A DNA stretch of 50,755 nucleotides from a virus (lineage: Duplodnaviria; Heunggongvirae; Uroviricota; Caudoviricetes). Positions 31,049 through 50,510 of this stretch are shown here, in pieces. The stretch lies in IMG/VR virus record IMGVR_UViG_2908959467_000003, positions 1-50,755 of that record. The stretch is one strand, 5' to 3'. Every line of letters starts with the position of its first letter. Within the stretch, counting starts at the first letter, position 1. The translations under genes and the position numbers were made by a program. The notes beneath the pieces were generated by a model. It made no database searches, was not told where the DNA came from, and saw only the letters and a program-made list of their open reading frames with translations.

Positions 31049-31082
31049 AATTACTCCTGTGGATTGATCCAGTCTTTCTACA

Positions 31083-31463: not shown

Positions 31464-31469
31464 GTGTTA

Positions 31470-31664: not shown

Positions 31665-31695
31665 ATGCACTCTCCGTTATTAACCATGAACAAAG

Positions 31696-31735: not shown

Positions 31736-31770
31736 TTTAGTTTAAGTACCTTAGCTATTAGAATTAAGCT

Positions 31771-32487
31771 ATGGAAAATAAAAAATCACTGACGACAGAA
31801 CAGCTGGAAGACGCTAAGCGGCTTAAGGCTTTGTATGAGTCAAAAAAGAAAGAATTGGGGATAACCCAATACTCAATCGCTGATGAACTGGGTATCACCC
31901 AAGGAGCGGTAGGGCATTATCTTAATGGCAGAAATGCGCTAAACGTTGAGGTTGCATCTGGTTTTGCACGATTGTTGCAAGTCTCAATTGCTGATTTTAG
32001 CCAGTCAATTGCTGCCAAGGTTGCAGAACAGGCAGAAAGCCTTAAGAGCGATGCCAACGTAAGGTATGCAGGGGAATACAGAGCAGGAAAGAGGTATCCG
32101 GTGTTAAGCAGTATCCAGGCTGGCTCGTGGTGTGAAGCATGCGAACCATACACCATTAAAGACATAGATGTTTGGCTTGAGTCTGACGCGCATATTCAAG
32201 GTAATGCGTTTTGGCTTAAAGTGGAAGGTGATTCAATGACGGCACCGGTTGGGTTAAGCATTCCAGAGGGAACATTCGTTCTTTTCGATACCGGAAGGGA
32301 GGCGATCAACGGCAGCTTGGTCATAGCAAAACTTTCTGACTCTAACGAAGCAACATTCAAGAAGCTGATAATCGACGGCGGGAATAAATACCTCAAGGGA
32401 CTTAACCCTGCATGGCCTCTCGTGCCAATCAATGGAAACTGCAAGATTATAGGCGTTGCAATTGAGACAAAACTAAGGCTGGTTTGA
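31771..32487 (+). CDS. cI: CI-type prophage repressor with S24 peptidase domain (238 aa)
   Basis: N-terminal HTH (ITQYSIADELGITQGAVGHYLNG), C-terminal autocleavage domain (..VEGDSM..KK..). Confidence 0.85.
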   Translation: MENKKSLTTEQLEDAKRLKALYESKKKELGITQYSIADELGITQGAVGHYLNGRNALNVEVASGFARLLQVSIADFSQSIAAKVAEQAESLKSDANVRYAGEYRAGKRYPVLSSIQAGSWCEACEPYTIKDIDVWLESDAHIQGNAFWLKVEGDSMTAPVGLSIPEGTFVLFDTGREAINGSLVIAKLSDSNEATFKKLIIDGGNKYLKGLNPAWPLVPINGNCKIIGVAIETKLRLV

Positions 32488-32506
32488 TCACGCAAGGGGG
32501 ACGCTT

Positions 32507-32875
32507 ATGGTTGGAACCGCTATAGCAAGCTTTTTTGGGATGTTGGCAATCTCAACAATTTACGGCTTAGCGCATGCTTTTATTACGAAATCTCTATCAG
32601 AAAAAATAAGCCAGGCTTGGACGCATAGATCGGCTCGTTTCATGATTCTAGTGGTCATAGCAATACAAGGGATATCTGCATTTATCCTCTATGGATCAAG
32701 CTTATACCTATTGTATCAAGGCGCGACATTTACGCCTTACACCAGTGATTACGGAACTCTATACGATGGTAGTGAAGACATCTCTATGGCTTGGATCGTC
32801 TTTGGTTTATCTATGGCCGTGTCTGTTGTAGCAGACATCATTAAGGTAATTCTCGTCTTAACCTTCGCTGACTAA
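32507..32875 (+). CDS. Small multi-pass membrane protein (122 aa) co-oriented downstream of cI
   Basis: About 4 hydrophobic segments; AAGGGGGA RBS; occupies the slot where lambda has rexAB. Confidence 0.5.
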   Translation: MVGTAIASFFGMLAISTIYGLAHAFITKSLSEKISQAWTHRSARFMILVVIAIQGISAFILYGSSLYLLYQGATFTPYTSDYGTLYDGSEDISMAWIVFGLSMAVSVVADIIKVILVLTFAD

Positions 32876-33006
32876 CCCATAATCCCGGCAGCAATAGCTA
32901 TCGGGATCCACTTCACATATCCCGCATAAAAATCACTGAACAAGCAGACACCGAAAAAATAAATATCCTTTGTATTCATTTGTTTATCATTATTTCATCA
33001 AAAATA

Positions 33007-33046
33007 AATACCTTGGGTATTTACACAATAAAATACCTACAGTATT
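33007..33046. promoter_or_regulatory. OL operator sites (same AATAC-N5-GTATT family)
   Basis: AATACCTTGGGTATT (33007..33021) and AATACCTACAGTATT (33032..33046), centres 25 bp apart; degenerate third copy at 32962..32976. Confidence 0.55.
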
Positions 33047-33094
33047 CTTTAGCCATCAGCAGGACGCTGGAAGCCAAACGGAACAGATTGGCAG

Positions 33095-33135
33095 GCTCTT
33101 TAACATTGATGGGATTGTCCCGCCGAAATGCGGGA
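33095..33135 (+). promoter_or_regulatory. nutL-like site (boxA GCTCTTTAACA + boxB hairpin)
   Basis: boxB TCCCGCCGAAATGCGGGA identical to nutR on the other strand. Confidence 0.6.
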
Positions 33136-33242
33136 ACCAAAGAGTAGTTGGCTTTGGGGTGACGTGAAGTGCAGATGCACGACGGCAACCGGAAGATAAG
33201 CACCCGGCGCGTCACCGCCAAAGTCAATCATCGGAGGTCAAC

Positions 33243-33542
33243 ATGACAGTAGTCATTACATATCTGGCTGACGATAACGCCAGAAATCGCCGCAGAGCAC
33301 GCAGACAGGCTCAACGTGAACAGGCAATGCAAGAGCAGCGACTGGCGCGAAAAATTGAGCTAAAGCTCTCTGGTTGCGTCAGAGCAGATAAAGCAGCATC
33401 ACTCGGAAGCCTTCGCTGCAAGAAGGCAGAAGAAGTCGAGCGTAAACAGAACCGTATTTACTACCGCAAGCCACGCAGTGAAATGGGTGTGACTTGTGTT
33501 GGTCGCCAGAAAATGAAATTAGGCAGCAAACCACTTATTTGA
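33243..33542 (+). CDS. N: N-like antiterminator (99 aa)
   Basis: Arginine-rich motif NARNRRRARRQAQ; C-terminus ..RIYYRKPRSEMGVTCVGRQKMKLGSKPLI parallels lambda N. Confidence 0.8.
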   Translation: MTVVITYLADDNARNRRRARRQAQREQAMQEQRLARKIELKLSGCVRADKAASLGSLRCKKAEEVERKQNRIYYRKPRSEMGVTCVGRQKMKLGSKPLI

Positions 33543-33550
33543 GGTGATAT

Positions 33551-33874
33551 ATGGAAGCATTAGTAGTAGAGCGAAGCGAGGATGGCTACTGGACGCACCC
33601 AGAATACGCCAACCTGTTTGGGGATAGAGAGGTAATTTCAGCTGATGAGTTCAGATCTTTCTGCAAGCAGCATGGCATTGAATCATCAATTGTTGAAATG
33701 GAAAACGACAACAATCAAACGGTAATTGACTCGTATTTTGAAGATGGGAATCCAAACATCAGTGGATGGGAGCCAAGCATGCCAGATGGAGAAGGATGGT
33801 TTGTTGGTTCGATTCACGATACAGAAGACGGTCCGATCTGCGTTTGGTTCAGGAATGTAGATAAGGCCGCATAG
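33551..33874 (+). CDS. Hypothetical acidic protein (107 aa)
   Basis: First gene after N; pI clearly acidic; no recognised motif. Confidence 0.45.
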   Translation: MEALVVERSEDGYWTHPEYANLFGDREVISADEFRSFCKQHGIESSIVEMENDNNQTVIDSYFEDGNPNISGWEPSMPDGEGWFVGSIHDTEDGPICVWFRNVDKAA

Positions 33875-33890
33875 TCGGCCTTTATTTTTG
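33864..33890 (+). terminator. Rho-independent terminator (tL1-like)
   Basis: AGGCCG-CATAGT-CGGCCT followed by TTATTTTTG. Confidence 0.55.
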
Positions 33891-33911
33891 GCATAAACAA
33901 CAGAGGTGAAT

Positions 33912-34046
33912 ATGAACGCAGTTGAATTTACAAAATGGATGGCAGAGCAAGATATCACAGGATCCGACGAAAAGGCTGTGTACTACATGGCTCTGCTATG
34001 GATTCACAAAGCAAAAGAGGCTGCAAATGCTCTTGGAGGTGAGTGA
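33912..34046 (+). CDS. Small hypothetical protein (44 aa)
   Basis: ATG with GAGGTG RBS; stop overlaps next start (TGATG). Confidence 0.3.
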   Translation: MNAVEFTKWMAEQDITGSDEKAVYYMALLWIHKAKEAANALGGE

Positions 34047-34246
34047 TGTGCGAGTTTTATGAAGCAGATATCAAACGCCCAGAAATGGCAAGTGATGCAA
34101 CATTACGTGATTACTTCGCGGCAAAGGCTATGCAAGCAATGATTAGCAATCCATCGATTATCGATAATGATTCTGATGGAGCTGTTAATTATGCAGCAAG
34201 CGCTGCATATAAGTTTGCAGACGCAATGCTCAAAGCTCGCGAATAA
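34046..34246 (+). CDS. Hypothetical protein (66 aa)
   Basis: ATG 34046 preceded by GGAGGTGA. Confidence 0.35.
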   Translation: MCEFYEADIKRPEMASDATLRDYFAAKAMQAMISNPSIIDNDSDGAVNYAASAAYKFADAMLKARE

Positions 34247-34341
34247 GCACTGTGTATTCATTCCAACGAGTGAATACACGGAGCAATGTCGCTCGTAACT
34301 AAACAGGAGCCGACTTGTTCTGATTATTGGAAATCTTCTTT

Positions 34342-34368
34342 GCCCTCCAGTGTGAGGGCAATTTTTTT
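34342..34368 (+). terminator. Rho-independent terminator within the PL operon
   Basis: GCCCTC-CAGTGT-GAGGGC followed by AATTTTTTT; preceded by a second 9-bp-stem hairpin at 34252..34279. Confidence 0.5.
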
Positions 34369-34380
34369 GATGGAGGATAT

Positions 34381-35349
34381 ATGAGTGAAGTAACAGATTT
34401 AGTTGTTATTGAAAAATCAAATGCAATGACTGTATTTCAGTCTGCCGACCAGATTGAAGAAATCCTTCAAAAGGTTGAACGTGAAGTTATGTCCTTTGTG
34501 CCTGATATCACCACGGCAAAGGGCAGAAAGGAGATCGCTTCTCTGGCGTATAAAGTTGCGCAGACGAAAACATATCTCGATGGTCTTGGCAAAGACCTTG
34601 TTGCTGAACTGAAGGAAATTCCAAAGCTAATTGATGCCAACCGCAAGACAGTGCGCGATCGCCTTGATGAACTGAAAGCCAAGGCGCGCCAGCCTCTTAC
34701 TGATTATGAGGAAGAACAGGCGCTGATTAAAGCCGAAGAAGAAGCTAAGGCAGCAGCTGAAGCTCTCGCAAAGCAAATTGAGTCTGACCATGAAATAGCG
34801 ATTTTGATGGATCGCGAATTTGACCGCCAAAGAGAAGAGGCAAGACTCAAAGCGGAGCAGGAAAAGCGAGAGCATGAAGAACGCTTAAAAAGAGAAGCTG
34901 AAGAGAAAGCCAGAGCAGAAGCCGAAGCAAAGGCAAAAGCCGAAATTGAAGCAGCAGCAAGGCGAGAAGCAGAAGCTAAGGCCGCAGCGGAACGTGCAGA
35001 GCGTGAACGCATTGAAGCCGAGCAACGAGCACAGCGCGAAGCAAAAGAGGCGGCGGAACGAGCTGAAAGAGAAAAGCATGCGGCAATTGAAGCAGAACGC
35101 AGAAAAGCACAGGAGGAGGCTGAACGAATCCGTCGCGAGGCTGAAGCAAAAGAGCAAGCCAGAATAGCAGAAGAAAAAAGAATCAAGGACGAAGAAGAGC
35201 GTAGAGCAAAAGATAAAGCTCACCGGAAAGAAGTAAATAACAAAATACTTGCTGACCTTATCAAGGTTGGTGCATCAGAAGATGTTGCTAAAAATATCAT
35301 AACAGCCATCGTAAAAGGCGAAGTATTCGCAACAAAAATAACCTACTAA
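34381..35349 (+). CDS. Charged coiled-coil protein (322 aa), unknown function
   Basis: ATG 34381 with GGAGGA RBS; central approximately 150 aa of A/E/K/R repeats; globular ends. Confidence 0.5.
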   Translation: MSEVTDLVVIEKSNAMTVFQSADQIEEILQKVEREVMSFVPDITTAKGRKEIASLAYKVAQTKTYLDGLGKDLVAELKEIPKLIDANRKTVRDRLDELKAKARQPLTDYEEEQALIKAEEEAKAAAEALAKQIESDHEIAILMDREFDRQREEARLKAEQEKREHEERLKREAEEKARAEAEAKAKAEIEAAARREAEAKAAAERAERERIEAEQRAQREAKEAAERAEREKHAAIEAERRKAQEEAERIRREAEAKEQARIAEEKRIKDEEERRAKDKAHRKEVNNKILADLIKVGASEDVAKNIITAIVKGEVFATKITY

Positions 35350-35373
35350 TAAAACCAATATAAGGAACCACCC

Positions 35374-35505
35374 ATGATTTACGCAATCGCGGGAGGCGCT
35401 CGCATGGGTGCCTTCCAACTAAATGAATCTTTACTTGAGCGAATCACCCGTAAATTACGTGACGGATGGAAAAGAGTTGAGGTCTTATTATGCGCAATGA
35501 AATAG
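35374..35505 (+). CDS. Small hypothetical protein (43 aa)
   Basis: ATG with AAGGAA RBS; early-left region. Confidence 0.3.
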   Translation: MIYAIAGGARMGAFQLNESLLERITRKLRDGWKRVEVLLCAMK

Positions 35506-35642
35506 CCATCAATCACCAGATGCTTCGTGCTGCACAGAACAAAGCAGTAATAGCCAGATTTATTGGTGATTCAAAAATGTGGCTTGAAGCAAATAAAGCG
35601 ATGAAATCAGCTATCAACCTTCCGTGGTATCGCAGGAAATGA
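35490..35642 (+). CDS. Small hypothetical protein (50 aa)
   Basis: Overlapping ORF in a different frame. Confidence 0.25.
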   Translation: MRNEIAINHQMLRAAQNKAVIARFIGDSKMWLEANKAMKSAINLPWYRRK

Positions 35643-35809
35643 GTTTTACAGATAACTGGTCAGACGAAGAATTCATTCATCAGATGAAAGAATTAATCGG
35701 TAACGAAGGAGATATTCATGTCACTTGCAACCACAGTGAAGGAGAGCAAGTTACAGAGACGCATGTACACGCAGCAGGCGTTAATGTATCGCCAGAAGGG
35801 AGATCGTGA
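35639..35809 (+). CDS. Small hypothetical acidic protein (56 aa)
   Basis: ATG 35639 (MSFTDNWSDEEF..). Confidence 0.3.
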   Translation: MSFTDNWSDEEFIHQMKELIGNEGDIHVTCNHSEGEQVTETHVHAAGVNVSPEGRS

Positions 35810-35898
35810 AGGTGTTCGCGTATTTTTAAATGCGGCAAAGACTGAAGTATTAAATCAGCGTTATTTCCTTGGGCCGTGTCCATTCTGAGAACAATCAT

Positions 35899-36504
35899 AT
35901 GAGCAAAGAATTTTACGCAAGACTGGCAGCTATTCAGGAGAATCTGAACGCGCCAAAGAATCAGTACAACTCATTCGGCAAATATAAATACAGAAGCTGC
36001 GAAGACATTCTTGAAGGCGTTAAGCCGTTACTGAATGGCCTGTTTTTATCAATCAGCGATGAAGTTGTGTTGATTGGTGATCGGTATTACGTGAAAGCCA
36101 CGGCAACTATTACTGATGGCGAAAACAGTCATACAGCAACCGCTCTTGCACGAGAGGAAGAAAGCAAGAAAGGAATGGATTCTGCACAAGTTACGGGAGC
36201 TACAAGCTCTTATGCACGCAAGTATTGCCTCAATGGTTTGTTCGGCATTGATGATGCGAAAGATGCAGATACAGACGAGCATAAACATCAGCAGAACGCA
36301 GCAGCAAAGCAATCAAAACCATCACCTACACCTGAACAGGTTCTAAAAGCATTCACTGACGCAGCAATGCAGAAAAACACCGTGGAAGAGCTTAAACAGG
36401 CGTTCGCCAAAGCGTGGAAGATGCTCGAAGGCACACCGGAGCAGCACAAAGCGCAGGACGTTTACAACATCAGACGAGACGAATTAGAAGGAGCGGCTGC
36501 TTAA
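35899..36504 (+). CDS. erf: Erf single-strand annealing recombinase (201 aa)
   Basis: MSKEFYARLAAIQENLNAPKNQYNSFGKYKYRSCEDILEGVKPLL.. matches recalled P22 Erf; start at internal ATG. Confidence 0.85.
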   Translation: MSKEFYARLAAIQENLNAPKNQYNSFGKYKYRSCEDILEGVKPLLNGLFLSISDEVVLIGDRYYVKATATITDGENSHTATALAREEESKKGMDSAQVTGATSSYARKYCLNGLFGIDDAKDADTDEHKHQQNAAAKQSKPSPTPEQVLKAFTDAAMQKNTVEELKQAFAKAWKMLEGTPEQHKAQDVYNIRRDELEGAAA

Positions 36505-36887
36505 TGGCACATTCGATTACTGTAAGGCTAAACAAGCCCGCAAGAGAGTTTCAGGCCGGGGAAAATATCGGATTCAACATCCGTGCTGGCGTTCAGTATT
36601 ACGATCGCCAGACAAAAAAGAAAGAATGGACAAACTACAGCGCCGTTGTATTTGCCAAGCCGGGAGCGCAAGCGGATTACTACCGTAGTGTTCTTGTTGA
36701 AGGTGGCATTGTAGAAATTACCGGAGAAAACATCAGGGTTGATGTTTATCAGGGGCAAAATGGTCAATCAATCACTCTTGAATTACTGAATGCAAAGATT
36801 GGATTTGCAGCTTCAGGAAATGGCTCGCAGCAGCAAAGTAGTAACCAGCAGAACACTCCTGTATACGACGATTCCATCCCATTCTGA
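36504..36887 (+). CDS. SSB-like single-stranded DNA-binding protein (127 aa)
   Basis: OB-fold-like pattern and SSB-type acidic tail ..VYDDSIPF; start overlaps erf stop (TAATG). Confidence 0.65.
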   Translation: MAHSITVRLNKPAREFQAGENIGFNIRAGVQYYDRQTKKKEWTNYSAVVFAKPGAQADYYRSVLVEGGIVEITGENIRVDVYQGQNGQSITLELLNAKIGFAASGNGSQQQSSNQQNTPVYDDSIPF

Positions 36888-36910
36888 TTCAGAAAAATAA
36901 GGATTCCATT

Positions 36911-37207
36911 ATGCCAGCGCCTCTGCATGGTGCGGATGACCCGCGCCGCTGTTCCGGCAATTCCGTATCGGAGGTGCTGGATAAATTCAGGAAAAACTAC
37001 GACCGGATAATGTCGCTACCGCAGGAAACGAAAGAGGAAAAGGAATTTCGCCATTGTATATGGCTTGCAGAGAAAGAAGAACGCGAGCGAATTTACCAGA
37101 CATCAATCCGACCATTCCGCAAAGCCACATATACCCACTTCCCTGAATATATCGACCCACGCCTGCGTAATTACTTCTCACGCTATGGCGCTATCAGTAA
37201 TGACTGA
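36911..37207 (+). CDS. Hypothetical protein (98 aa)
   Basis: Early-left ORF, no motif recognised. Confidence 0.4.
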
Positions 37208-37217
37208 GGAATTTACA

Positions 37218-37382
37218 ATGAGAGGACTTGCATACAATCCCGGCATTCTTCCGGCAGAAATGATTATTCGCCAACGCGTAAAGCCAATGCCATCGAGAGA
37301 GGAATTGCTTAAGAGAAATTCTTTTCCATCAGTGAATCAAAACAAATATCTGAATGCGATGTGGCGGAGTGGGAAGAAATGA
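37218..37382 (+). CDS. Small hypothetical protein (54 aa)
   Basis: ATG with GAGGAA RBS. Confidence 0.3.
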
Positions 37383-37402
37383 AACAAATGTAACTAATTG
37401 AG

Positions 37403-37810
37403 ATGGATGGTTTTCTGAAAGGTAAATGCTTCCCACGAGATTTAAAGGTTAACGAAACAAACGCTGAATATCTGGTGCGTAAGTTCGGTGAGCTTGAATC
37501 AAAACTGGAAACGGCGTTGCGGGAGTGTCGTTCTGCTGGAATCACGATTGATAACCTTGAGGCTAAATGCGCGAAGATGGCTGCAGAAAATACCTCGCTT
37601 AAGCAATCTGAGAAGGAATTTAATGACTTTTGTCGTGAGGAGTTTGGCGAATGGGAAGATGATGTTACTGAAACCCCAGCCACCGATGCTTTCCTGGCTG
37701 AAGTACGGGCGCAGGGGGTAGAGATGTTTGCTGACCATCTGTTGTGCCCAGACCTTGATGACACTATCCGTGACTTTGCTGCCCAGCTTCGCAAAGGAGG
37801 CAACCAGTGA
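37403..37810 (+). CDS. Hypothetical protein (135 aa)
   Basis: Early-left ORF. Confidence 0.4.
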   Translation: MDGFLKGKCFPRDLKVNETNAEYLVRKFGELESKLETALRECRSAGITIDNLEAKCAKMAAENTSLKQSEKEFNDFCREEFGEWEDDVTETPATDAFLAEVRAQGVEMFADHLLCPDLDDTIRDFAAQLRKGGNQ

Positions 37811-37974
37811 GCGAAATTAATTACCAGGCACTGCGTGAGGTGGCGGAACGTGCAATTCCAGCAATGGAACGCCTGTTAATGTTGCCAGATGATGATGATT
37901 TGTTAAGTGAACAGGAACTTAAAGATTACGGTGTGGATATTGATGCGCTCAACGCCTTCAAATTTCTGACCTGA
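37807..37974 (+). CDS. Small hypothetical acidic protein (55 aa, GTG start)
   Basis: GTG preceded by AAGGAGG 7 nt upstream. Confidence 0.3.
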   Translation: MSEINYQALREVAERAIPAMERLLMLPDDDDLLSEQELKDYGVDIDALNAFKFLT

Positions 37975-37983
37975 CCAGAAACC

Positions 37984-38517
37984 GTGCTGGCGCTGCTGGA
38001 TGAGCTGGAAAGAAACCAGCAATACATCAAACGCCGCGACCAGGAGAACGAGGATATTGCGCTTACGGTTGGGAAGCTGCGCGTTGAGCTTGAAGCAGCA
38101 GAGAACAACCTTATTGATAGTGAATGCCATGTTGCTGAACTGGAAGAAGCGCTACGCGATAAGCAGGCGTTACTTGAAGCCTCTGAAAAGCGCAACGCAA
38201 AATTACAAAGCGAGAATGCATACATCCGCAACCGGTTCAAAGAACTGGACCTGTTAATCGGGAAAAACATTCTGGTCATGCAGGCTGCCATTATCGAATG
38301 GCAGGCAACTGGCGACGCTAAGAGCGGACTGGCATGGATTTATAACACACTGTTTGGCCCTGGCGAATTACCGGACGAATCTGAGAAAGATGCTCAGGCC
38401 TACTTTAATCGCAAATATGCACCGATTGACGAAAAGCTTATGGCGCTTCACAAGTGGTTTTGGGAACAAAGTGAAGCCGAGCGCGCCGCCGCCAACATTG
38501 GTGTGAAGGGGAAGTGA
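37984..38517 (+). CDS. Hypothetical coiled-coil protein (177 aa; start uncertain)
   Basis: Heptad-rich N-terminal half; the track start is a non-ATG codon with no good RBS. Confidence 0.4.
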   Translation: MLALLDELERNQQYIKRRDQENEDIALTVGKLRVELEAAENNLIDSECHVAELEEALRDKQALLEASEKRNAKLQSENAYIRNRFKELDLLIGKNILVMQAAIIEWQATGDAKSGLAWIYNTLFGPGELPDESEKDAQAYFNRKYAPIDEKLMALHKWFWEQSEAERAAANIGVKGK

Positions 38518-38518
38518 G

Positions 38519-38710
38519 ATGAACGGACAAATCTCAATTGTTCGACCGGGAGCATGTGACGATCGCGAGATACGCATGATTATTCGTCTGGCGATGGGGA
38601 AAACAATAACTGTTCTCATTACTCCTGAAAATCTCGCATTAGCATTAACAGGAAAGTCAGACCTTCCAGTAGAGCTAAAGCTGCGAAATATTGAGATTAA
38701 AGTGAAATAG
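38519..38710 (+). CDS. Hypothetical protein (63 aa)
   Basis: ATG with GAAGGGGAAG RBS. Confidence 0.4.
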   Translation: MNGQISIVRPGACDDREIRMIIRLAMGKTITVLITPENLALALTGKSDLPVELKLRNIEIKVK

Positions 38711-38712
38711 TT

Positions 38713-39099
38713 ATGAATACTCTTACCAAAGAATGGTTACAGAACACGATTACCAGCATTGAGTCAGCACGGGATGAAATACCGTTCGGACTCGATGAAG
38801 ATCAAAACAACATGCTTACCGCATTAAAAATTGCACTGGCATCACTGGGAGCAGAACCAGTTGCTTATATTTTCAAACATCCGGCCGGGAAATTATTCTG
38901 GGCTTTAACGGATGAAAGCAATAAAGATCAATCGGACGTTATTCCTGTTTATGCCGCCCCTCCAGTGCCAGTAGTACCTGAAGAAAAACCAATGCCTAAC
39001 CCTCTTAAAATGTACGCGGTCGATGCTGTTGCCGCTATTGCAGAGGTGAGAGGCTGGAACTCCTGCCGCGCCGCCATGCTTAAGGGAGATAAATCATGA
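38713..39099 (+). CDS. Hypothetical protein (128 aa)
   Basis: Early-left ORF; proline-rich linker. Confidence 0.4.
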   Translation: MNTLTKEWLQNTITSIESARDEIPFGLDEDQNNMLTALKIALASLGAEPVAYIFKHPAGKLFWALTDESNKDQSDVIPVYAAPPVPVVPEEKPMPNPLKMYAVDAVAAIAEVRGWNSCRAAMLKGDKS

Positions 39100-39377
39100 T
39101 TAATCGTACCAAGCTGGAGCACATCCTCGAATATGCCAGACAGCAGAGGCGCTTTGGTCAGCATTGCAAAATTCCGCCAGGAGATATGGTTGAAATCGTG
39201 GAGATTGCCATGCGCAAGGCTGGCAACTCTCCGGTAACTCCGGATGGCTATGCGGACATGCTGCAGCGCTGGCTGGTGTTTGGGATAGGCATGCTAAAAG
39301 CGGGTAGCCAGTTACCACGAAATCTAATCGCTGAAACCAAAGCCATGGTTGCAGCATTACAGCAGGAGGATGAATGA
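39096..39377 (+). CDS. Hypothetical protein (93 aa)
   Basis: ATG with AAGGGAGA RBS. Confidence 0.4.
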   Translation: MINRTKLEHILEYARQQRRFGQHCKIPPGDMVEIVEIAMRKAGNSPVTPDGYADMLQRWLVFGIGMLKAGSQLPRNLIAETKAMVAALQQEDE

Positions 39378-39604
39378 TGAGACGCTCAAGTTGGGATGCT
39401 CGCCTTGATAAGCGCATGAATATCGAGAAGCTAGAAGAACAAGGTCTTATCGCTGACAGTATGGAAGTTAGAAGGAGTCTTGTTGAACGAGTTATGAGAG
39501 GAGAAATAACTCCAGAGCAGTCCAGGGAAGAACTGAAACGGATTCAGAGAAATGCCAAGCGCAATGGACTTAAAACCAGAAACCAGGCATGGAGAGAAGG
39601 TTGA
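39374..39604 (+). CDS. Hypothetical basic protein (76 aa)
   Basis: Last sizeable gene of the early-left operon. Confidence 0.4.
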   Translation: MMRRSSWDARLDKRMNIEKLEEQGLIADSMEVRRSLVERVMRGEITPEQSREELKRIQRNAKRNGLKTRNQAWREG

Positions 39605-39637
39605 TGGCTAAATCCGCAGCAGAACGCAACTAACAAA

Positions 39638-39692
39638 CCTCGCACCGTCGAGGTTTTCTTTTATCTGAACTCGCTACGGCGAGTTTTGTTTT
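39638..39692 (+). terminator. Tandem terminator hairpins at the end of the early-left operon
   Basis: CCTCG-CACCGT-CGAGG + TTTTCTTTT, then AACTCGC-TACG-GCGAGTT + TTGTTTT. Confidence 0.5.
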
Positions 39693-39705
39693 ATGGAGAT
39701 GATAA

Positions 39706-39873
39706 ATGCACTTCCGAGTCACAGGTGAATGGAATGGAGAACCATTCAACAGAGTTATCGAAGCAGAGAACATCAACGACTGCTATGACCACTGGATGAT
39801 ATGGGCGCAGATAGCACATGCAGACGTAACCAATATTCGAATTGAAGAACTGAAAGAACACCAAGCCGCCTGA
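39706..39873 (+). CDS. Small hypothetical protein (55 aa) bracketed by terminators
   Basis: ATG with GGAGATGA RBS. Confidence 0.35.
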   Translation: MHFRVTGEWNGEPFNRVIEAENINDCYDHWMIWAQIAHADVTNIRIEELKEHQAA

Positions 39874-39888
39874 TGGCGGTTTTTTTAT
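39865..39888 (+). terminator. Rho-independent terminator
   Basis: GCCGCC-TGAT-GGCGGT followed by T7. Confidence 0.55.
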
Positions 39889-39896
39889 TACCTGAT

Positions 39897-39912
39897 TTGC
39901 AGGTTCGATTCC
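39897..39912 (+). other. 16-nt match to the T-arm region of tRNA-Arg (argW): TTGCAGGTTCGATTCC
   Basis: Sequence read directly; argW comparison is from memory. tRNA similarity stops on both sides, so not a tRNA gene. Confidence 0.55.
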
Positions 39913-39931
39913 CTATTCGGAGATAGCACTC

Positions 39932-40132
39932 ATGCAACACGAACTACAACCTGATTCACTGGTTGATTTGAAATTCATCATGGCCGATACTGGCTTCGGT
40001 AAAACCTTCATCTATGACCGGATTAAGTCCGGCGACCTGCCTAAAGCCAAAGTTATCCACGGGCGAGCAAGATGGTTATATCGTGACCATTGTGAATTCA
40101 AAAATAAGCTCTTAAGCCGCGCCAATGGGTAA
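39932..40132 (+). CDS. torI: Excisionase / recombination directionality factor, TorI/AlpA-like (66 aa)
   Basis: 66-aa winged-helix-type protein (..IMADTGFGKTFIYDRIKSGDLPKAKV..RARWLYRD..) between the two argW-like segments. Confidence 0.65.
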   Translation: MQHELQPDSLVDLKFIMADTGFGKTFIYDRIKSGDLPKAKVIHGRARWLYRDHCEFKNKLLSRANG

Positions 40133-40205
40133 AATAGCGGGTAAAATTTTTTTCACATCTAAAAAACACCATTCCAATCAATCCCCTGCCGCTTCAAGTA
40201 GATGT

Positions 40206-40220
40206 CTGCAGGGGACACCA
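40206..40220 (+). other. Putative att core: 15-nt match to the 3' terminus of argW (CTGCAGGGGACACCA)
   Basis: Exact 3'-terminal tRNA-Arg sequence including CCA; no tRNA body upstream; 160 bp upstream of the second integrase. Confidence 0.6.
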
Positions 40221-40380
40221 TGAACACTTCTCACTAAGTCCAATTAATTCCATAACTCACTGTTTTAACTGATATCATCTCCTTATACTCGTCCAGCAAA
40301 GTACCATTATTTCTAATGGAATCTATACATCTTTGCGTATAACATTGTGTATAACTGAGTTCGATCTTTTTTCTATACAC

Positions 40381-41556
40381 ATGCTGCTATCTGACATCCA
40401 AATAAAAAGAGCAAAACCGAAGGACAAACCCTATACGCTTAACGATGGTATGGGGCTATCACTCCTGATCGACACAGCGGGCAGTAAAGGCTGGCGTTTT
40501 CGCTATCGCTTTGCAGGTAAGCCTAAGATGATTTCCTTTGGCGTATATGGCGATGTGTCGTTGGCACAGGCACGTACCAAACGTGATGAAGCGCGTTCGA
40601 TGTTAGCCAAAGGGATAAACCCAAGTGAAGCCAGAAAAGCAGATAAGATTGCTTTGCAGTTCGCGCATGAGAACAGCTTTGAGTCTGTGGCCAGAGAATG
40701 GCACTCATCGAAAAAAGCCACCTGGTCAGAGGGTTATGCAAAAGAGGTTCTCAATTGTATGGAAAAGGATATTTTTCCTTTTATCGGCCAGCGCCCAATT
40801 GAGCAGATTGAACCATTAGAACTGCTAACCGTCCTGCAAAAAATAGAGAAAAGAGGTGCGCTAGAGCAAACCAGTAAGATCCGCCGCCGCTGTGGTGAAG
40901 TGCTTCGTTATGCTGTTGCCACTGGTAGAGCAAAGTATAATTTTGCACCCGATTTAGCTATCGCACTCAACAAACCTAAAACCCAACACTTCCCGTTCCT
41001 GACTGAAAGCGAGTTGCCCGAGTTCGTTAATGCTCTGGATAACTATCAGGGCAGTTTAGTTACCAAATACGCCACGCAGCTGTTGATGCTAACAGGCGTG
41101 CGAACAATTGAACTACGTGCAGCGGAATGGGCTGAGTTTGATTTAGATAATGCCTTATGGGAGATCCCCAAAGAACGGATGAAGAAACGCCGCCCCCATC
41201 TGGTTCCGTTATCAACTCAGGCGATCAATATCCTGAAAAAGCTGCAAGAAATAACAGGGAATTACAGCCTCGTTTTCCCTGGCCGAAATGACGTCAGGAA
41301 ACCAATGAGCGAAGCCAGCATCAACAAAGTGATAAAACTACTGGGTTATCACGGTCGGTTAACGGGTCACGGTTTCAGGCATACCATGAGCACCATCTTG
41401 CATGAGCATGGGTTTGAAAGTGCCTGGATTGAAATGCAGCTTGCGCATGTTGATAAGAACTCTATTCGAGGTACTTACAATCATGCGCAATATATTAAAG
41501 ATCGACAAGTAATGATGGAATGGTACGCTAGCTTATTAAATACGACCTGCTATTAA
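40381..41556 (+). CDS. Tyrosine integrase, P4 family (391 aa)
   Basis: MLLSDIQIKRAKPKDKPYTLNDGMGL.., ..RRRCGEVLRYAVATGRAKYNFAPDLA.., ..HGFRHTMST..; paralogous to the int at 1..1158. Confidence 0.85.
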   Translation: MLLSDIQIKRAKPKDKPYTLNDGMGLSLLIDTAGSKGWRFRYRFAGKPKMISFGVYGDVSLAQARTKRDEARSMLAKGINPSEARKADKIALQFAHENSFESVAREWHSSKKATWSEGYAKEVLNCMEKDIFPFIGQRPIEQIEPLELLTVLQKIEKRGALEQTSKIRRRCGEVLRYAVATGRAKYNFAPDLAIALNKPKTQHFPFLTESELPEFVNALDNYQGSLVTKYATQLLMLTGVRTIELRAAEWAEFDLDNALWEIPKERMKKRRPHLVPLSTQAINILKKLQEITGNYSLVFPGRNDVRKPMSEASINKVIKLLGYHGRLTGHGFRHTMSTILHEHGFESAWIEMQLAHVDKNSIRGTYNHAQYIKDRQVMMEWYASLLNTTCY

Positions 41557-42486
41557 ATCCAGCATGAAACAAATATGGTGAGTAATTTGATACTGTTTGT
41601 TTTTTGGCAACCCAGGGAAATGCCTTACAGTTGGTTGACTATTGTAATAATAATAGTTAAGACCAATGTTGCTGCCAAACTGGGTTGGATGTTGGGGAAC
41701 AAGATTTGTAATTTGATCTGAAACATCTAAAAATTTTGCAGTAACATTTGAACTTCCTCGTTGCGTGTTGCTTGATACAAAATGACGAATCCAAACTGTA
41801 TTCGCTTGTAAATTCTTGAACACCAAATGTGCGGCAACAGCAGAAGGTTGACCACCTCCAAGATCTAGTACCTGGCCAGTAATTGTATAATCGCCAAATC
41901 CTAAGTAATTTTGTCCCACGAATTGATGTGCGTGCGTGAAAAGTTCCGGCCCATTATAATCAGCATTTTTTGCTAACTTTCTAAAGTTATCGCTAATAAT
42001 AATTAACTTCGACAAAGGAAGAAGAGCGCACTGATTAGGAAGCATTTTATTATTTAAAACAACATGATAACTAATCAATTGATTTGTCGCCAACAACTGA
42101 ATATCAGAGTTGGATAATGATGGATTATCATATAGAAGTGCAACTCGTCTATTTAAGTTAGCATTCAACCAATTATTAATATCATTAATCGTTGTATTGG
42201 GCTGAATAAGATATCCAGAGATGATATTGTTTTTATTTGTTAATACACTTGATAAATTTTGATTTAAAGTTAAGACGTTATTGTGTGAAGAAAAATCTTC
42301 CTGATAAGGATTAAGGATAACAATTATGTCAGAATTCCAAACATTTAAACATGTTAATAAATTTCTCGTATTGACGTTAATTGGTTCTAAAATTGGTAGC
42401 AGACCATTTAGGCTAACTCCCTTCGCAACGAGGTCCCTAAGGCATAATAACTCTGTACTTCTCGCATACAAATATGGGCTATACAT
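41536..42486 (-). CDS. Cargo protein B (316 aa), unknown function; second gene of an AT-rich two-gene operon
   Basis: N/S/L-rich low-GC ORF, 21 nt after gene A; no recognised motif; 3' end overlaps the convergent int by 21 bp. Confidence 0.6.
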   Translation of the reverse strand: MYSPYLYARSTELLCLRDLVAKGVSLNGLLPILEPINVNTRNLLTCLNVWNSDIIVILNPYQEDFSSHNNVLTLNQNLSSVLTNKNNIISGYLIQPNTTINDINNWLNANLNRRVALLYDNPSLSNSDIQLLATNQLISYHVVLNNKMLPNQCALLPLSKLIIISDNFRKLAKNADYNGPELFTHAHQFVGQNYLGFGDYTITGQVLDLGGGQPSAVAAHLVFKNLQANTVWIRHFVSSNTQRGSSNVTAKFLDVSDQITNLVPQHPTQFGSNIGLNYYYYNSQPTVRHFPGLPKNKQYQITHHICFMLDLIAGRI

Positions 42487-42507
42487 AACTTACAACTCCT
42501 GAGGATA

Positions 42508-43389
42508 TCAACAAATTTTAATTTTTACATCCATCAAATTCATGATGAATTCTTTTTGCTTTCTTGATAATGGTGTTGCATAACCTAAAACACGTAAACA
42601 TGCTGGAAGAGAATAAATATAATCCAAAAAAACTTTGTCGTTACATCTTTTTTTCATAGCAGAGATAAAGTATTTATTTGCTATGTTTAATGGCATCTGC
42701 ATGAATATCTCTTTACAATATTCATAAACCAATCCATTAGGCATATTTATTTTAGTTGAAGTGTAATCTTCTATTATAGCTAAGAACTCTTCCTTTCTAA
42801 GAACTGAAAACAAGCTGTCACTTTTAATATAATCAATATTTGAATCTGCCTCCTTAATGACACTCAATTGATCTTTTTTATTCAAAACCATAACTCCCAC
42901 TCTGGGGAGATTTAAAGCACAATATTTACTTGCATACTCTGGATGTGTAACTATATACACTTTATCAAAAACATCCAAATAATCAGGGGCTTGAGTAATC
43001 AACCTTTTTGGTGAATCATACTCTGTCTTAATCTCGTAAGCTGTAGACGTACCATTAAACACCGCAACATCCACTATAGAGTTTTTAATTGGTAACTCTA
43101 TGGACGACGAACTTGTTTTTGGGCTGTGCTTACCGAATATTATTTTATTGACAAGTGCTGTCTTATAAACATATTCATTTCTATAATTCAGACGCAAAAA
43201 ATCATATAATGATGTAAATAAATCCCTTAGTGAAATCTCATGTTCATTATTATCATTGTTTGAAAACAGTGTTTCATAGCAGTAAGAATCAAAACTCCCA
43301 AATAAATCCGAAATATCCTTACCTTTTGCTAAGGATGAAAAAATGGGGCGACGGAAAAATTTAGCATATTCCTTTTTATTATGACTCAT
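42508..43389 (-). CDS. Cargo protein A (293 aa), putative PD-(D/E)xK nuclease-fold protein
   Basis: ..SIELPIKNSIVDVAVFNGTSTAYEIKTEYD.. gives the E / hydrophobic-D / E-x-K arrangement; AT-rich. Confidence 0.6.
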   Translation of the reverse strand: MSHNKKEYAKFFRRPIFSSLAKGKDISDLFGSFDSYCYETLFSNNDNNEHEISLRDLFTSLYDFLRLNYRNEYVYKTALVNKIIFGKHSPKTSSSSIELPIKNSIVDVAVFNGTSTAYEIKTEYDSPKRLITQAPDYLDVFDKVYIVTHPEYASKYCALNLPRVGVMVLNKKDQLSVIKEADSNIDYIKSDSLFSVLRKEEFLAIIEDYTSTKINMPNGLVYEYCKEIFMQMPLNIANKYFISAMKKRCNDKVFLDYIYSLPACLRVLGYATPLSRKQKEFIMNLMDVKIKIC

Positions 43390-44069
43390 TACTCATACTC
43401 TATAAACATCATGCAATTTGATAAGTTATGACGAATTCTCACCATCCAGTTACTACCTGTACATACTAATCAAAAAAAACGAGTACGCAAGATACGAAAG
43501 TACTTTTCTTGTTCACCAGTTAGCTTACCTTGATCCTCACCAGCGACTGGAAGATAGGTAGCAGTATATGTGGAAACCTTCCCCTAGCTAGGTCTACAAA
43601 CGTAGTTTGGGCATTTAGGCTCCACGATTCACGGTTTGACACGGCCTGATATCTGCACATTCGTTTTGATATGCAGCAATCGTGAAAAAGGGAAAATATA
43701 CGCTCGACAGACCAAAACGGCACTACACCGCACCCGCCTGCGGTTTTCATATCACTAAAAATTTTCAGCCTGGATTTTTTACAAACGATACCGCCAGTCC
43801 GTGCCAGTCCTCGAGATGTACTGCGATACAGGAACTGAAAAGAATGAAAAGAAATTCATTTTTTTTCAGTTTTACTGTCCGTCGAATCTATGGCCTGAAT
43901 ACGCAACTCTATGATATTAAATGGATAATTAATTTTAGGTGTGTGATTTTATGAAGGTTTGTGAAACATGAAGAAGATAACCAGTTGAAAAATAATAATT
44001 TTATGACCGTATAAACTGAAATCCTGTGTTCAGGTTCCGGGAACAGATCGGCCATTCCCGACGCATACT

Positions 44070-44342
44070 TTACCCATTCTTTTGCGCAGCCAGCAGCAAC
44101 TTTAAAGCCTTTTCCCGTTCCTCGGGTGGAATTGCATCAATCAGCTCTTTAACCCTTCCCTGCCCGTTCAGCGCGCTTGGACTAACGGAATGGGAGAAAG
44201 CAACATTCATCACAAACGAGTGACCGCACTCCACATTAGAGCAATAGCAGTACACATCGTACAGTTGTGGGTGTTTCCTGTTTGTTTTACCTATCCGTGC
44301 TACTGCCTGACATGTGGGGCAGTACATTCTCATCATCTTCAT
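44070..44342 (-). CDS. ogr: Ogr/Delta-family zinc-finger late-gene activator (90 aa; start may be an internal Met)
   Basis: C-x2-C...C-x4-C pattern (MYCPTCQ..CYCSNVEC) as in P2 Ogr / P4 Delta. Confidence 0.7.
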   Translation of the reverse strand: MKMMRMYCPTCQAVARIGKTNRKHPQLYDVYCYCSNVECGHSFVMNVAFSHSVSPSALNGQGRVKELIDAIPPEEREKALKLLLAAQKNG

Positions 44343-47719: not shown

Positions 47720-47948
47720 CGCGCATCACTCCCTTAATTGTGCTGGTTTCCTTAACAACGCCATCCAGTTGTTCGGCAATACAGGCCACTAAAGCCGCAG
47801 CGCCTTCCGCTGAAACAGTTCTCGCTCCATTCACTGTGGGCACGGACAAGACCTCTGCAAGAAACTCACTGGCCAGTGCCGCCCGTAACAGACGACTCTC
47901 CCCCTGTTCACTCAATATGCAGCCTTGCTTAAAATTCATGGATTTCAT
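47712..47948 (-). CDS. Hypothetical protein (78 aa)
   Basis: Operon member; no motif. Confidence 0.4.
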   Translation of the reverse strand: MKSMNFKQGCILSEQGESRLLRAALASEFLAEVLSVPTVNGARTVSAEGAAALVACIAEQLDGVVKETSTIKGVMRDE

Positions 47949-48148
47949 GCAACCACCTCCCCGGCTCTTTTCACAGGGATACGGGCAGCAAAGCTCAGGA
48001 TAAATTCAGTGGCAAGTTTAAGGCGTGCAGCATGCTCGCATTCTGCGATTACACGCACAGGGCGTGGACGGGCATCACGGTCTGTACGGCGGACAGCCAG
48101 AAAGACAAAGGTAAATTCAGGGTGAGATAAAGCAGGGACTGTAGCCAT
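47945..48148 (-). CDS. Small hypothetical protein (67 aa), first gene of the alpha operon
   Basis: ATG at 48148 with GAAGGAGG RBS; the longer track ORF to 48535 is an unsupported extension. Confidence 0.4.
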   Translation of the reverse strand: MATVPALSHPEFTFVFLAVRRTDRDARPRPVRVIAECEHAARLKLATEFILSFAARIPVKRAGEVVA

Positions 48149-48160
48149 AATGGCAACCTC

Positions 48161-48425
48161 CTTCAGATAGCGGGTAACGCTACCACCGGAGTTCCTACGC
48201 TCATGGGTGGTAGCCCAGACGGGGGTAGGAATACCGGCTCTGAAGGATACCGGCCAGCCCGAAAGCTGCCCCGCCTGGACTACCATAATTCTGATGATGT
48301 GGCGTAAAAAATAAAAAAATACAATCAGCCACCACACCATAAATTTTAGGTGAGTCAAAGCTGCGACACAAAAAAACACGCCTGGCGCGTGTAGTATCGC
48401 CTTCAGATAACACGGGTTCCTACGC
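48161..48425 (-). promoter_or_regulatory. Candidate RNA immunity region (P4 seqA/cI/seqC-like) with internal terminator
   Basis: Two direct copies of CTTCAGATA..GTTCCTACGC (48401..48425, 48161..48200) flank a reverse-complement copy (48225..48247); hairpin + U7 at 48370..48392. Confidence 0.4.
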
Positions 48426-48577
48426 CCGGCTGCCGATTTTGCGGCAACCTTTAAACTATATCCCGCGCATTCCTGGTGAGGCAAGAAATTTATAACCGAA
48501 AACTGATCATTGCCTGGATTAATTAACGCTGGCATGCTTAAGCCTCTGCTTAAAAATAGTTCTTCATTTTTCCTGAT

Positions 48578-48622: not shown

Positions 48623-49627
48623 TCAATCCGCAAACGTCAGGGCGCTCTCATCGACAGCCGCGTACAGTTCAGGTTCACCGAGTGCATAACCTTCATTGCG
48701 CAGGTAGGAATGCACGTATTCACTGCTTTCATCATCAAACTCAGCACGAAACCAGCGTGTTATCGCCTGAGTGTAAATATGCAGATTATCCAGCGTCGTT
48801 ACTGCCAGACGCTTACCCGGCATAAACGGGGGAATAAACGCAAAGCGGCCAGCAACAGAACTTGTAGCCATCTGTGCCGCATTCACATCAGACGGGCGGT
48901 CTGCGGCATTAAATAACTTCAGGCGTTGATGTGCTGCCAGCTCTGCCCCAACCAGTACAACCAGACGAGGATCTTCACGAAACTGCTCAGCAATAAGCTC
49001 TGTAATCAGATGGTTGGCCAGAGCATCAATATTTTTCCAGGTGCCAGTCTCTCCCAGAGTGACAGGCTCAGAGATGATTTGCTTTCCGTTCCCGTAGGCT
49101 TTCGCCAGTGCATGCCAGCCAATATTGACATCCTCGCCTTTTTTATTGATTTCCGGGTTTGTAGTATTTGCAATCGACACACCATTGAAACCGACCCGCA
49201 GCATGTCCAGCGCATATGCCTGGGCAAAAAAGCTCTCAACCGTTTTCTCAAACTCATCCGGCACGCCGGTATGGTAAATATGAGACATATCGGAATAGCT
49301 GATCCGGGCGCAGGTATCCGTCTCTGTCAGAAAGAACTCCGTACCATTGATTGCCATTTTTTTGTGGAAACGGCCACCATCCACACGTCCGGTATACAGT
49401 TCACTGGCACCAATATTGACGGCATTACCTGACACGGCGTTAACATCACGTAGGGTAATATTTTTAATAAGCCACCCGGATTCCAGAATTGAGGTACGCA
49501 GTATATTTTCAGTAGGTTCGCTTAATGCAAAGCGTCTGTTTGATTCTTCCTGATAGTTAGTGCCAGTGACGAATTTATTATGATAACGACGTGCTGCGTC
49601 CGGCCTTTCAGTTTTGAAGGCATACAT
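48623..49627 (-). CDS. P2 gpN-family major capsid-like protein (334 aa)
   Basis: Blocks alignable to recalled P2 gpN (GFNGV, ..IGW.., DALANHLITELIAEQFREDPRLVVLVG, LDNLHIY); from memory, unverified. Confidence 0.5.
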   Translation of the reverse strand: MYAFKTERPDAARRYHNKFVTGTNYQEESNRRFALSEPTENILRTSILESGWLIKNITLRDVNAVSGNAVNIGASELYTGRVDGGRFHKKMAINGTEFFLTETDTCARISYSDMSHIYHTGVPDEFEKTVESFFAQAYALDMLRVGFNGVSIANTTNPEINKKGEDVNIGWHALAKAYGNGKQIISEPVTLGETGTWKNIDALANHLITELIAEQFREDPRLVVLVGAELAAHQRLKLFNAADRPSDVNAAQMATSSVAGRFAFIPPFMPGKRLAVTTLDNLHIYTQAITRWFRAEFDDESSEYVHSYLRNEGYALGEPELYAAVDESALTFAD

Positions 49628-49649: not shown

Positions 49650-50510
49650 TTAAGAAAAGATTTTATTTTTGTACTCAGTAACCAGATTGTATTTCATTAC
49701 ATGCTCAACATAATCCCGGTCACTTACGACTGAACGTAATACATAATTATCTGCTCGATAGTACTCCCTGTAAGCCATAGCTCTTGCCATTCCACCGTTA
49801 TTTAATACATAACGATCAGTTGGAACGCTACAACGACTAATAATTTCACTCACGGAATCAGATAAAGACTTGAGTGCATCAGTAATAAATTTAATATCAC
49901 GGACAACGTCACTGTCATTAAATACAGAAATAAAATCAGCAGGGATCTGGCCGGATTGAGGAAATATATTCAGTAAACGCTTATCGATTCCCTTCCCAAT
50001 GTAGTTTCCTTCATCGGCCAGTACTCCCGGCAAAAGCTTGATCGTGCTCAATCGACTATGTTGTTCATTCAACCGGGAAACAGCCAGATGGTAATACCGT
50101 TCAGCATCCGCTCGTTCAGCATGCCCCATTTTATTCGTTTTGGCTTCAGCAATGCTACTGACGCCGTTTTTTGAGAATGTGCTTTTCCATGCAACTTCCG
50201 CATTTGTCACTTCACGCTGCCGGAAAGATAACTCTTCCTCTTCCTGACGACACAACTGGGCATAACGGCTCAGGAGCAGGTTGATCTCATTCGCCACAGT
50301 TTCCGTATCAGGTACTGTTAACCCCGTAAGTGAATACAGCTTTTCACCTTTAGCTCGCAGCTTATTCAGTGAATATATTTCAATAATACGCACAATACAG
50401 GCCGTGTCGCTATGAGTCTCTTTAAATGATCTTACTTTGTAACTATCTAACACCGACACATGTTCGTTCTTAATTGATGCCAATTTCTTCTTAAAAACAT
50501 TGTCAACCAT
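49650..50510 (-). CDS. Hypothetical protein (286 aa), AT-rich, unknown function
   Basis: Low-GC ORF between AlpA and the capsid-like gene; no recognised motif. Confidence 0.5.
   Translation of the reverse strand: MVDNVFKKKLASIKNEHVSVLDSYKVRSFKETHSDTACIVRIIEIYSLNKLRAKGEKLYSLTGLTVPDTETVANEINLLLSRYAQLCRQEEEELSFRQREVTNAEVAWKSTFSKNGVSSIAEAKTNKMGHAERADAERYYHLAVSRLNEQHSRLSTIKLLPGVLADEGNYIGKGIDKRLLNIFPQSGQIPADFISVFNDSDVVRDIKFITDALKSLSDSVSEIISRCSVPTDRYVLNNGGMARAMAYREYYRADNYVLRSVVSDRDYVEHVMKYNLVTEYKNKIFS

Follow-up and report, generated by a model that had tools for sequence, protein, structure and literature searches.

The 50,755-bp stretch of Caudoviricetes DNA analyzed here (IMG/VR record IMGVR_UViG_2908959467_000003, positions 1 to 50,755; hereafter, the window) contains two AT-rich genes, A and B, side by side on the minus strand between a tyrosine integrase gene and an ogr gene. 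The question raised by this locus is what such a pair does for the mobile element that carries it. This cassette is probably an anti-phage module of two genes and a gop-less, co-directional relative of the gop-beta-cII system of P4; it is exchangeable cargo of a P4-like satellite at the tRNA-Arg gene argW. We infer the defense phenotype from the homology to gop-beta-cII, the role of the beta-like component in PD-lambda-2, the association of related pairs with RES-domain proteins, and a slot that otherwise holds validated defense systems. The enzyme-like conservation of both proteins and the foreign, mobile, and patchy character of the cassette speak for the same reading.

Two AT-rich genes in a predicted operon

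An earlier, sequence-only reading of this DNA had proposed two minus-strand open reading frames (ORFs) of 293 and 316 amino acids separated by 21 nt, and these hold, coordinates included:

42508..43389, minus strand: gene A, 293 amino acids, sce7726/Phage_P4_cII family; predicted MmcB-like PD-(D/E)xK core (residues ~70 to 180), helical N-terminal region, and helical C-terminal domain
42487..42507, minus strand: A-B spacer, 21 nt, with the Shine-Dalgarno motif AGGAG (42500..42496) 9 nt ahead of the ATG of B (read directly)
41536..42486, minus strand: gene B, 316 amino acids, sce7725 family; predicted single TIM-barrel-like domain, remote homolog of P4 beta

Because the spacer holds AGGAG and no terminator separates the genes (no terminator-like site was found within the 21 nt), A and B are read from their layout as one operon. 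Gene B and the integrase gene converge, and their 3′ ends overlap by 21 bp. The G+C content of 41536..43389 is 0.325 (0.306 for A and 0.341 for B; ~0.27 at third codon positions), compared with 0.479 for the satellite backbone and 0.467 for the whole window, so the AT richness that had been noticed by eye is confirmed by calculation. This is the lowest-G+C stretch of ~1.85 kb in the 50.7-kb window (z = −4.5 against 25 nonoverlapping windows), and a G+C content as low is found in just 0.28% of all 1854-bp windows.

Gene A encodes a predicted cII-family nuclease

Protein A belongs to NCBIfam family sce7726 (NF033832; 175.6 bits against a cut-off of 70; E = 1e-51) and matches the PADLOC model “cll,” against which P4's own cII scores E = 3e-113. 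The corresponding P4 system, gop-beta-cII, is named Rst_gop_beta_cll in DefenseFinder and is represented in PADLOC by the models gop, beta, and cll. RefSeq labels P4 cII a “sce7726 family protein,” and PF26915 (Phage_P4_cII) is borne by a homolog that is 100% identical over 90% of A (P0001) as well as by 119 other homologs. Compared by hhalign, the A family and P4 cII align at 97.5% (E = 8e-12) over 173 columns.

Six residues (E72, E98, D107, E119, K121, and Q133) are invariant in 78/78 A homologs from many phyla. The predicted structure of A is confident and has an MmcB-like nuclease fold, with a restriction endonuclease-like alpha-beta-beta-beta-alpha-beta core that bears the D...(D/E)xK residues. 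The E/D/E-x-K motif that the sequence-only reading had taken as a sign of a nuclease therefore stands, with E98, D107, E119, and K121 all invariant and a nuclease fold predicted around them. Sequence conservation and the model together mark A as a predicted PD-(D/E)xK nuclease whose catalytic residues are intact. Sequence searches of the PDB with A and B, both as single sequences and as profiles, returned only noise. Residues ~231 to 285 of A (window 42535..42699) form a C-terminal helical domain with an invariant L-P-x-x-L-R-x-L-G motif. This domain weakly resembles TTHA1432 (PDB 2ysk; E = 0.25), in which a similar LPxxLR motif recurs, but the likeness is too weak to interpret.

Gene B encodes a remote relative of P4 beta

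Protein B is a member of NCBIfam family sce7725 (NF033831; 242.2 bits against a cut-off of 60; E = 1e-71), covering model positions 1 to 311 of 312. A profile of 34 sce7725 sequences aligned by hhalign with a profile of 27 P4 beta-family sequences at 88.9% (E = 2.4e-6) over 249 columns, and the two have in common an N-terminal Y-x-P-x-(L)-x-x-R-x-x-E motif and a G-D motif. Neither BLASTP of B against P4 beta nor hhalign against beta as a single sequence (5.6%) was significant, and hmmscan gave no match of B to Pfam Beta_protein (PF14350) even at E ≤ 1. Since Beta_protein and the PADLOC beta model are unmatched and the relationship is seen by profile-profile comparison only, B appears from its sequence to be a real but remote relative of Beta_protein rather than a member. 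A Pfam NAD_synthase match for B (E = 0.11) was set aside as noise.

The sequence-only reading had recognized no motif in this second protein. In fact, 10 polar residues (E12, E34, N59, N174, D199, H220, H235, S238, K297, and H304) are near-invariant in the B family, with or without an accompanying RES gene, and the predicted model is confident and TIM-barrel-like. Such conservation would be expected of an enzyme or of a protein that binds a specific ligand, not of a passive antitoxin, and the model describes a predicted TIM-barrel-like, single-domain protein. Searched at E ≤ 1e-3, the sce7725 family comprises 1,494 clusters at 50% identity; all of the best matches listed (150/150) are single-domain proteins of ~310 amino acids. 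Foldseek against BFVD gave one real match, a Gordonia phage protein, and nothing on P4 beta. The pair can thus be placed in named families, contrary to the first impression: NCBIfam sce7726/sce7725 for both proteins, PF26915 and PADLOC cll for A, and P4 beta homology for B. The PADLOC search suggested for both proteins succeeded for A, which matches cll alone, and gave no model for B.

The pair occupies an exchangeable cargo slot at argW

A satellite in strain EC12 that is 92 to 95% identical to the one in the window carries a reverse transcriptase (RT) and a SLATT protein. The two align along their flanks, at 40206-41525 and 43713-50755, with no alignment between, and place the cargo junctions at 41525/41526 and 43712/43713. 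Because this alignment sets both junctions, the module can be delimited along with its surroundings:

41526..43712, minus strand: exchangeable cargo module, comprising both genes and the 323 bp of cargo-specific DNA upstream of A (alignment with the EC12 satellite)
43390..43712, minus strand: cargo-specific 5′ region, 323 bp, presumed site of the operon promoter; not common to the EC12 satellite
43713..44069, minus strand: conserved satellite backbone downstream of ogr, 357 bp; 95% identical to the EC12 satellite from 43713 on
44070..44342, minus strand: Ogr/Delta-like zinc-finger activator, right flank of the cargo slot (Pfam Ogr_Delta, E = 5e-14)
40333..41556 (RefSeq start 40381), plus strand: tyrosine integrase of the satellite, P4/IntS type (Pfam Arm-DNA-bind_3, Phage_int_M, and Phage_integrase; RefSeq annotation)

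A noncoding leader of 680 bp had been envisaged upstream of A; the EC12 alignment divides it, so that 43390..43712 (323 bp) remains as cargo and 43713..44069 falls to the conserved backbone. A bidirectional terminator-like hairpin (43717..43744, with sites on both strands) lies on the cargo boundary. Neither a known RNA element (Rfam) nor a small gop-like ORF was found in the leader.

Sister satellites at the same argW site, with flanks 87 to 96% identical, carry other cargo in the same place, in the same orientation, and with the same overlap with the integrase 3′ end:

Strain EC12: reverse transcriptase plus SLATT protein
Strain SC455: retron Ec48, RT plus membrane effector
Strain FDAARGOS_1261: AAA ATPase plus DUF4435 (PARIS architecture)

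Counting the sce7726/sce7725 pair, four cargoes (the others being RT plus SLATT, retron Ec48, and PARIS) were found between the same int and ogr flanks at argW. The Ogr protein of the window (WP_000783295) also flanks the RT-SLATT cargo of EC12 and the PARIS cargo of FDAARGOS_1261; the position beside retron Ec48 in SC455 is held by a different Ogr/Delta-like protein. The slot has the properties by which a P4-like hotspot is recognized, namely variable content, a fixed integrase-proximal position, conserved flanks, and known defense systems among its contents. It does not fit the definition of Rousset et al. (2022), in which the slot runs from psu to int next to cos; here, it is bounded by ogr. 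The slot is an equivalent one in a divergent satellite lineage, which the psu-anchored search of Rousset et al. would have missed, and psu-less P4-like satellites thus have a cargo hotspot overlooked by psu-anchored surveys. The proposed placing of the AT-rich cargo at a variable site next to the integrase of a P4-like satellite is upheld by the C4/CI RNA immunity region, alpha primase, Ogr, AlpA, integrase, and att copies of the element and by the swapped cargoes at argW.

Every cargo variant of this satellite family runs 4 to 22 nt into the 3′ end of the integrase gene, which faces it (41536..41556 in the window, 3919..3938 in locus L084, 8339..8342 in L095, and 8318..8339 in L096). The final codons of int therefore come from the cargo, whose transcription enters int in the antisense direction. 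In the window, the last ~10 integrase codons fall within the swapped module, and the EC12 homology of the integrase stops at 41525. The integrase of EC12 is a pseudogene.

Distribution and related loci

The cassette and its flanks were found in 476/5426 complete Escherichia coli genomes (~9%), with all copies chromosomal, and in the E. coli records sampled it sits between the same integrase and the same ogr. Many of the sampled hosts are O25b:H4-ST131, and strain SE15 also carries the pair. Insertion sequences (IS1, ISEcp1, or ISEc23) lie within or just upstream of the cassette in a few genomes (E. coli records H10 to H13 and L085, 3499..5915), and in one genome the sce7725 gene is split by IS1. 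Such insertions may represent occasional inactivation of a costly module.

Beyond E. coli, a contig scan with the A alignment, keeping one genome per species, gave 80 related loci from Proteobacteria, Acidobacteria, Bacteroidota, Firmicutes, Actinobacteria, Spirochaetes, Nitrospirae, and other phyla. In almost every locus where the contig allows, sce7726 is followed by sce7725 on the same strand, and any gap or overlap between the two does not exceed a few tens of bases. A third co-oriented gene of ~340 amino acids with a RES domain (PF08808; E = 1e-12 to 1e-18), often accompanied by HEPN_RES_NTD1, is present in 39/80 loci, all in the more divergent group, and its ORF starts within −31 to +15 nt of the sce7725 stop in 36/39. 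None of the 22 closest loci has RES, nor does the window, and a gop homolog is likewise absent from both: phmmer detected none in the six-frame translation of the window or in the 80 related loci. No alternative third-gene family recurs in the loci without RES.

Elsewhere, the neighbors of the pair include integrases, transposases, type I restriction-modification S subunits, LmuB, ThsB, PDC-S02, and AspBHI-like and Schlafen-like proteins. A Morganella locus has the same Ogr/pair/integrase layout. Pseudomonas and Acinetobacter beta-family genes keep the layout of P4, in which a small ORF precedes beta and the two are convergent with a Phage_P4_cII gene. We therefore distinguish two sister architectures that have the nuclease and the beta-like barrel in common and differ in orientation and in the attached toxin (Gop, RES, or none). 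In Pseudomonas aeruginosa (loci L086 to L090, 4563..6847 and 7264..7859), the gop-like/beta/cII trio adjoins a HigB-like toxin and helix-turn-helix pair; it also lies beside filamentous-phage-like genes (DUF2523 and Phage_Coat_B), an arrangement that recalls the HigB-like, Xre, and beta composition of PD-lambda-2.

The satellite and its surroundings

The window is 100% identical to positions 4162380..4213134 of E. coli E62 (NZ_CP022393.1). The order at argW is tRNA-Arg, IntS, a P22-like prophage ending in torI (~1 to 40.1 kb of the window), a copy of the attachment site (att), and an element of ~11 kb:

40206..40221, no strand assigned: att copy (CTGCAGGGGACACCA...), 16 nt, the same as the 3′ end of tRNA-Arg argW (blastn of the argW region against the window)

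This att copy is the left end of the satellite and its junction with the P22-like prophage, and homology to the EC12 satellite begins exactly there; a third copy lies ~450 bp beyond the window end, before the csc genes, in the E62 record. Assignment of the integrase at 40333..41556 to the lambdoid or P22-like prophage was considered and rejected, since that prophage has IntS at argW and the att copy parts torI from the integrase. The element is a P4-like satellite lacking psu and sid, and the integrase adjoining the cassette is its own, as had been supposed from the sequence.

Gene order in the element is integrase (plus strand), B and A, Ogr, a DUF927/Toprim alpha-type primase, small ORFs with an Ash/Icd-like ORF, a P2-family capsid homolog with a 286-amino-acid ORF, and AlpA. 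Rfam detected P4-type immunity RNAs, with 81 bits for the C4 antisense RNA (48203..48290) and 69.5 bits for isrK; the c4 a1b1 target scored 43.8 bits, just below the gathering score of 46.7. The P4 cI region is ~80% identical to its satellite counterpart. The C4 antisense RNA, isrK, and the a1b1 target make up an immunity region of the P4 CI-RNA type (48203..48461, minus strand), which overlaps the 196-amino-acid Ash/Icd-like ORF at 47945..48535. Neither psu nor sid is present, and blastn found no P4 cos-like sequence near the slot. A near-full-length homolog of the P2 major capsid protein gpN (PF05125, E = 1e-66; 48623..49627, minus strand) adjoins the unannotated 286-amino-acid ORF (49650..50510, minus strand). 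A satellite with its own capsid-protein gene in place of Sid-type size redirection may represent a distinct P4-like lineage.

E62 and “Bongo” are among the strains in which the P22-like prophage (IntS to torI; window 1..40221 and locus L003) separates the satellite from the tRNA gene, so that two elements lie in tandem at argW; with few exceptions, the satellites of the other genomes sampled directly adjoin tRNA-Arg. Just inside the prophage, beside IntS, a low-G+C (~0.37) acyltransferase-family gene (1313..3268, plus strand) is probably an O-antigen-modifying moron. Between the P22-type genes for the major capsid and scaffolding proteins, and oriented opposite to them, is an HNH endonuclease gene (14916..15431, plus strand) that looks like a homing-endonuclease insertion. 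An MT-A70 family methyltransferase in the nin region (26941..27531, minus strand) may be an anti-restriction or epigenetic moron.

Proposed mechanism and alternative explanations

If the cassette is an anti-phage module, A and B would be made from one transcript and act together. B would sense infection, by way of a phage protein or of a metabolite or nucleic-acid state that the phage induces, or else restrain A; after the trigger, nuclease A would cut DNA, and phage replication would be blocked directly or by abortive infection. In the two-gene form, the effector role would fall to the nuclease, with the beta-like protein serving as sensor or regulator. In the three-gene relatives, the RES-domain, NAD+-targeting toxin would be an added suicide effector, as Gop (a SLATT-like membrane toxin) would be in P4. 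Both the sensor and executor roles and the chemistry of B are ones that we infer. Because both catalytic-looking centers are strictly conserved even where RES is present, the alignments suggest that the core mechanism includes both activities, to which RES is an accessory.

A bolder version of this mechanism, which we hold only speculatively and think rather unlikely, is that nuclease and beta-like barrel make up a widespread, self-sufficient immune core. The barrel would carry out a catalytic step that licenses the nuclease, such as the synthesis, breakdown, or sensing of a signal derived from nucleotides or consisting of nucleic acid, and individual lineages would add interchangeable suicide effectors (RES or Gop/SLATT). 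If true, this would explain what P4 beta and PD-lambda-2C do and would constitute a new class of enzymatic sensor in bacterial immunity.

Several observations weigh against an anti-phage role modeled on gop-beta-cII. The link between B and beta is remote (89% between profiles and 5.6% with single-sequence beta), and no PADLOC 2.0 model matched B, the beta model included. As a system, the pair is absent from the PADLOC 2.0 catalog, in which A matches cll only. The three components of P4 are not all here, since the pair is without gop, the SLATT-like small membrane toxin; nor is the architecture that of P4, in which gop and beta are co-transcribed and convergent with cII, whereas the pair is co-directional from A to B. 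Given this gene order and the absence of gop, the logic of gop-beta-cII may not transfer to the pair. Upstream of A, no convincing operon promoter was located: the sole consensus promoter-like site on the cargo strand near the start of A (43406..43378) is unconvincing because it overlaps the start codon. Many neighbors of the homologs are housekeeping genes. The E. coli copies are nearly clonal, with a cassette at least 99% identical in 422 of the 476 genomes, and their abundance may reflect lineage expansion rather than selection. Finally, the full-text literature searched yielded no experimental test or functional study of the pair and mentions sce7725/sce7726 in passing only. The pair does not figure as a tested system in DefensePredictor, the modularity preprint, Domainator, or the Rousset supplements; “sce7726 family protein” appears merely among the product names in one DefensePredictor supplementary table.

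The cassette might instead be an addiction (toxin-antitoxin-like) module that stabilizes the satellite or a genomic island, with A as toxin, B as an enzymatic or binding antitoxin, and phage protection as a side effect. P4 gop is toxic without beta and has been taken with it as a toxin-antitoxin pair (PMC9122126), RES domains are the classic toxins of Xre-RES toxin-antitoxin systems (Pfam PF08808 matches), the A and B genes are tightly coupled, and insertion sequences are found in or beside the cassette in a few genomes. However, the slot exchanges this cargo with bona fide defense systems (PARIS and retrons), toxin-antitoxin-like systems in such a slot have turned out to be defense systems, and B, at 316 amino acids with an enzyme-like conserved core, is unlike the typical labile antitoxin. 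On balance, we consider addiction an unlikely primary function. Somewhat less likely again is a restriction-modification-like pair, in which B would label self by modifying host DNA or a nucleotide pool and A would cut incoming DNA that lacks the label, as this is a poorer fit to the RES and Gop partners. A satellite life-cycle or MmcB-like DNA-repair role (lysogeny or replication control, helper exploitation, or repair, not immunity) is improbable because sister satellites lack the pair and carry other cargo and because, outside satellites, the pair is widespread (in Acidobacteria, Bacteroidota, Firmicutes, and Actinobacteria); moreover, the P4 gop-beta-cII genes are called nonessential (PMC9122126), and the pair is AT-rich foreign DNA often joined to a RES toxin.

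An anti-phage module thus remains our preferred reading. On that reading, the link to gop-beta-cII turns two “hypothetical” families into one testable system, and the pair would be a naturally pared-down form of a known defense system, one that lacks a separate toxin. The nuclease and the beta-like protein would be its conserved core and the toxins (Gop and RES) its swappable parts, and the barrel, which points to an enzyme over a simple antitoxin, would offer a handle on the function of beta-like proteins.

Comparison with known systems

MmcB-like and NucS-type PD-(D/E)xK nucleases resemble A in its core fold and E...D...ExK constellation; A differs from them in its conserved N- and C-terminal helical domains and its obligate sce7725 partner. 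No link of A itself to DNA repair was found in this analysis.

PD-lambda-2 (Vassallo et al. 2022) is comparable through its beta-family protein PD-lambda-2C, and the PADLOC cross-match supports a beta-like protein in that system. Its beta-like component is needed for defense and not for toxin neutralization (PMC9519451), which suggests by analogy that beta-like proteins may be sensor or accessory components. In place of a cII-like nuclease, the beta-family protein there is partnered by a HigB-like toxin and an Xre-peptidase, and A and B match no PD-lambda-2 model.

Closer are the sce7726-sce7725-RES operons, in which A and B are orthologous and both gene order and invariant residues are alike; the clade from E. 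coli and other beta- and gammaproteobacteria differs in having no RES third gene. We located no published name for these three-gene operons.

The system against which the pair is best measured is gop-beta-cII of P4 (Rousset et al. 2022), which protects E. coli against lambda and P1 (PMC9122126) and kills the cell upon expression of the phage accessory protein orf184 (bioRxiv 10.1101/2023.04.06.535777); its Gop component is SLATT-like by HHpred. Protein B is only a remote relative of beta, seen by profile-profile comparison, and A has an extra beta-strand with the invariant E98 that is absent from P4 cII in the alignment. Common to both are the integrase-proximal cargo slot of a P4-type satellite, a cII-family, MmcB-like PD-(D/E)xK protein (PF26915) together with a beta-like TIM-barrel protein, and a location in AT-rich accessory DNA. 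The pair is not new in kind; it is a minimal, very common variant of the gop-beta-cII kind.

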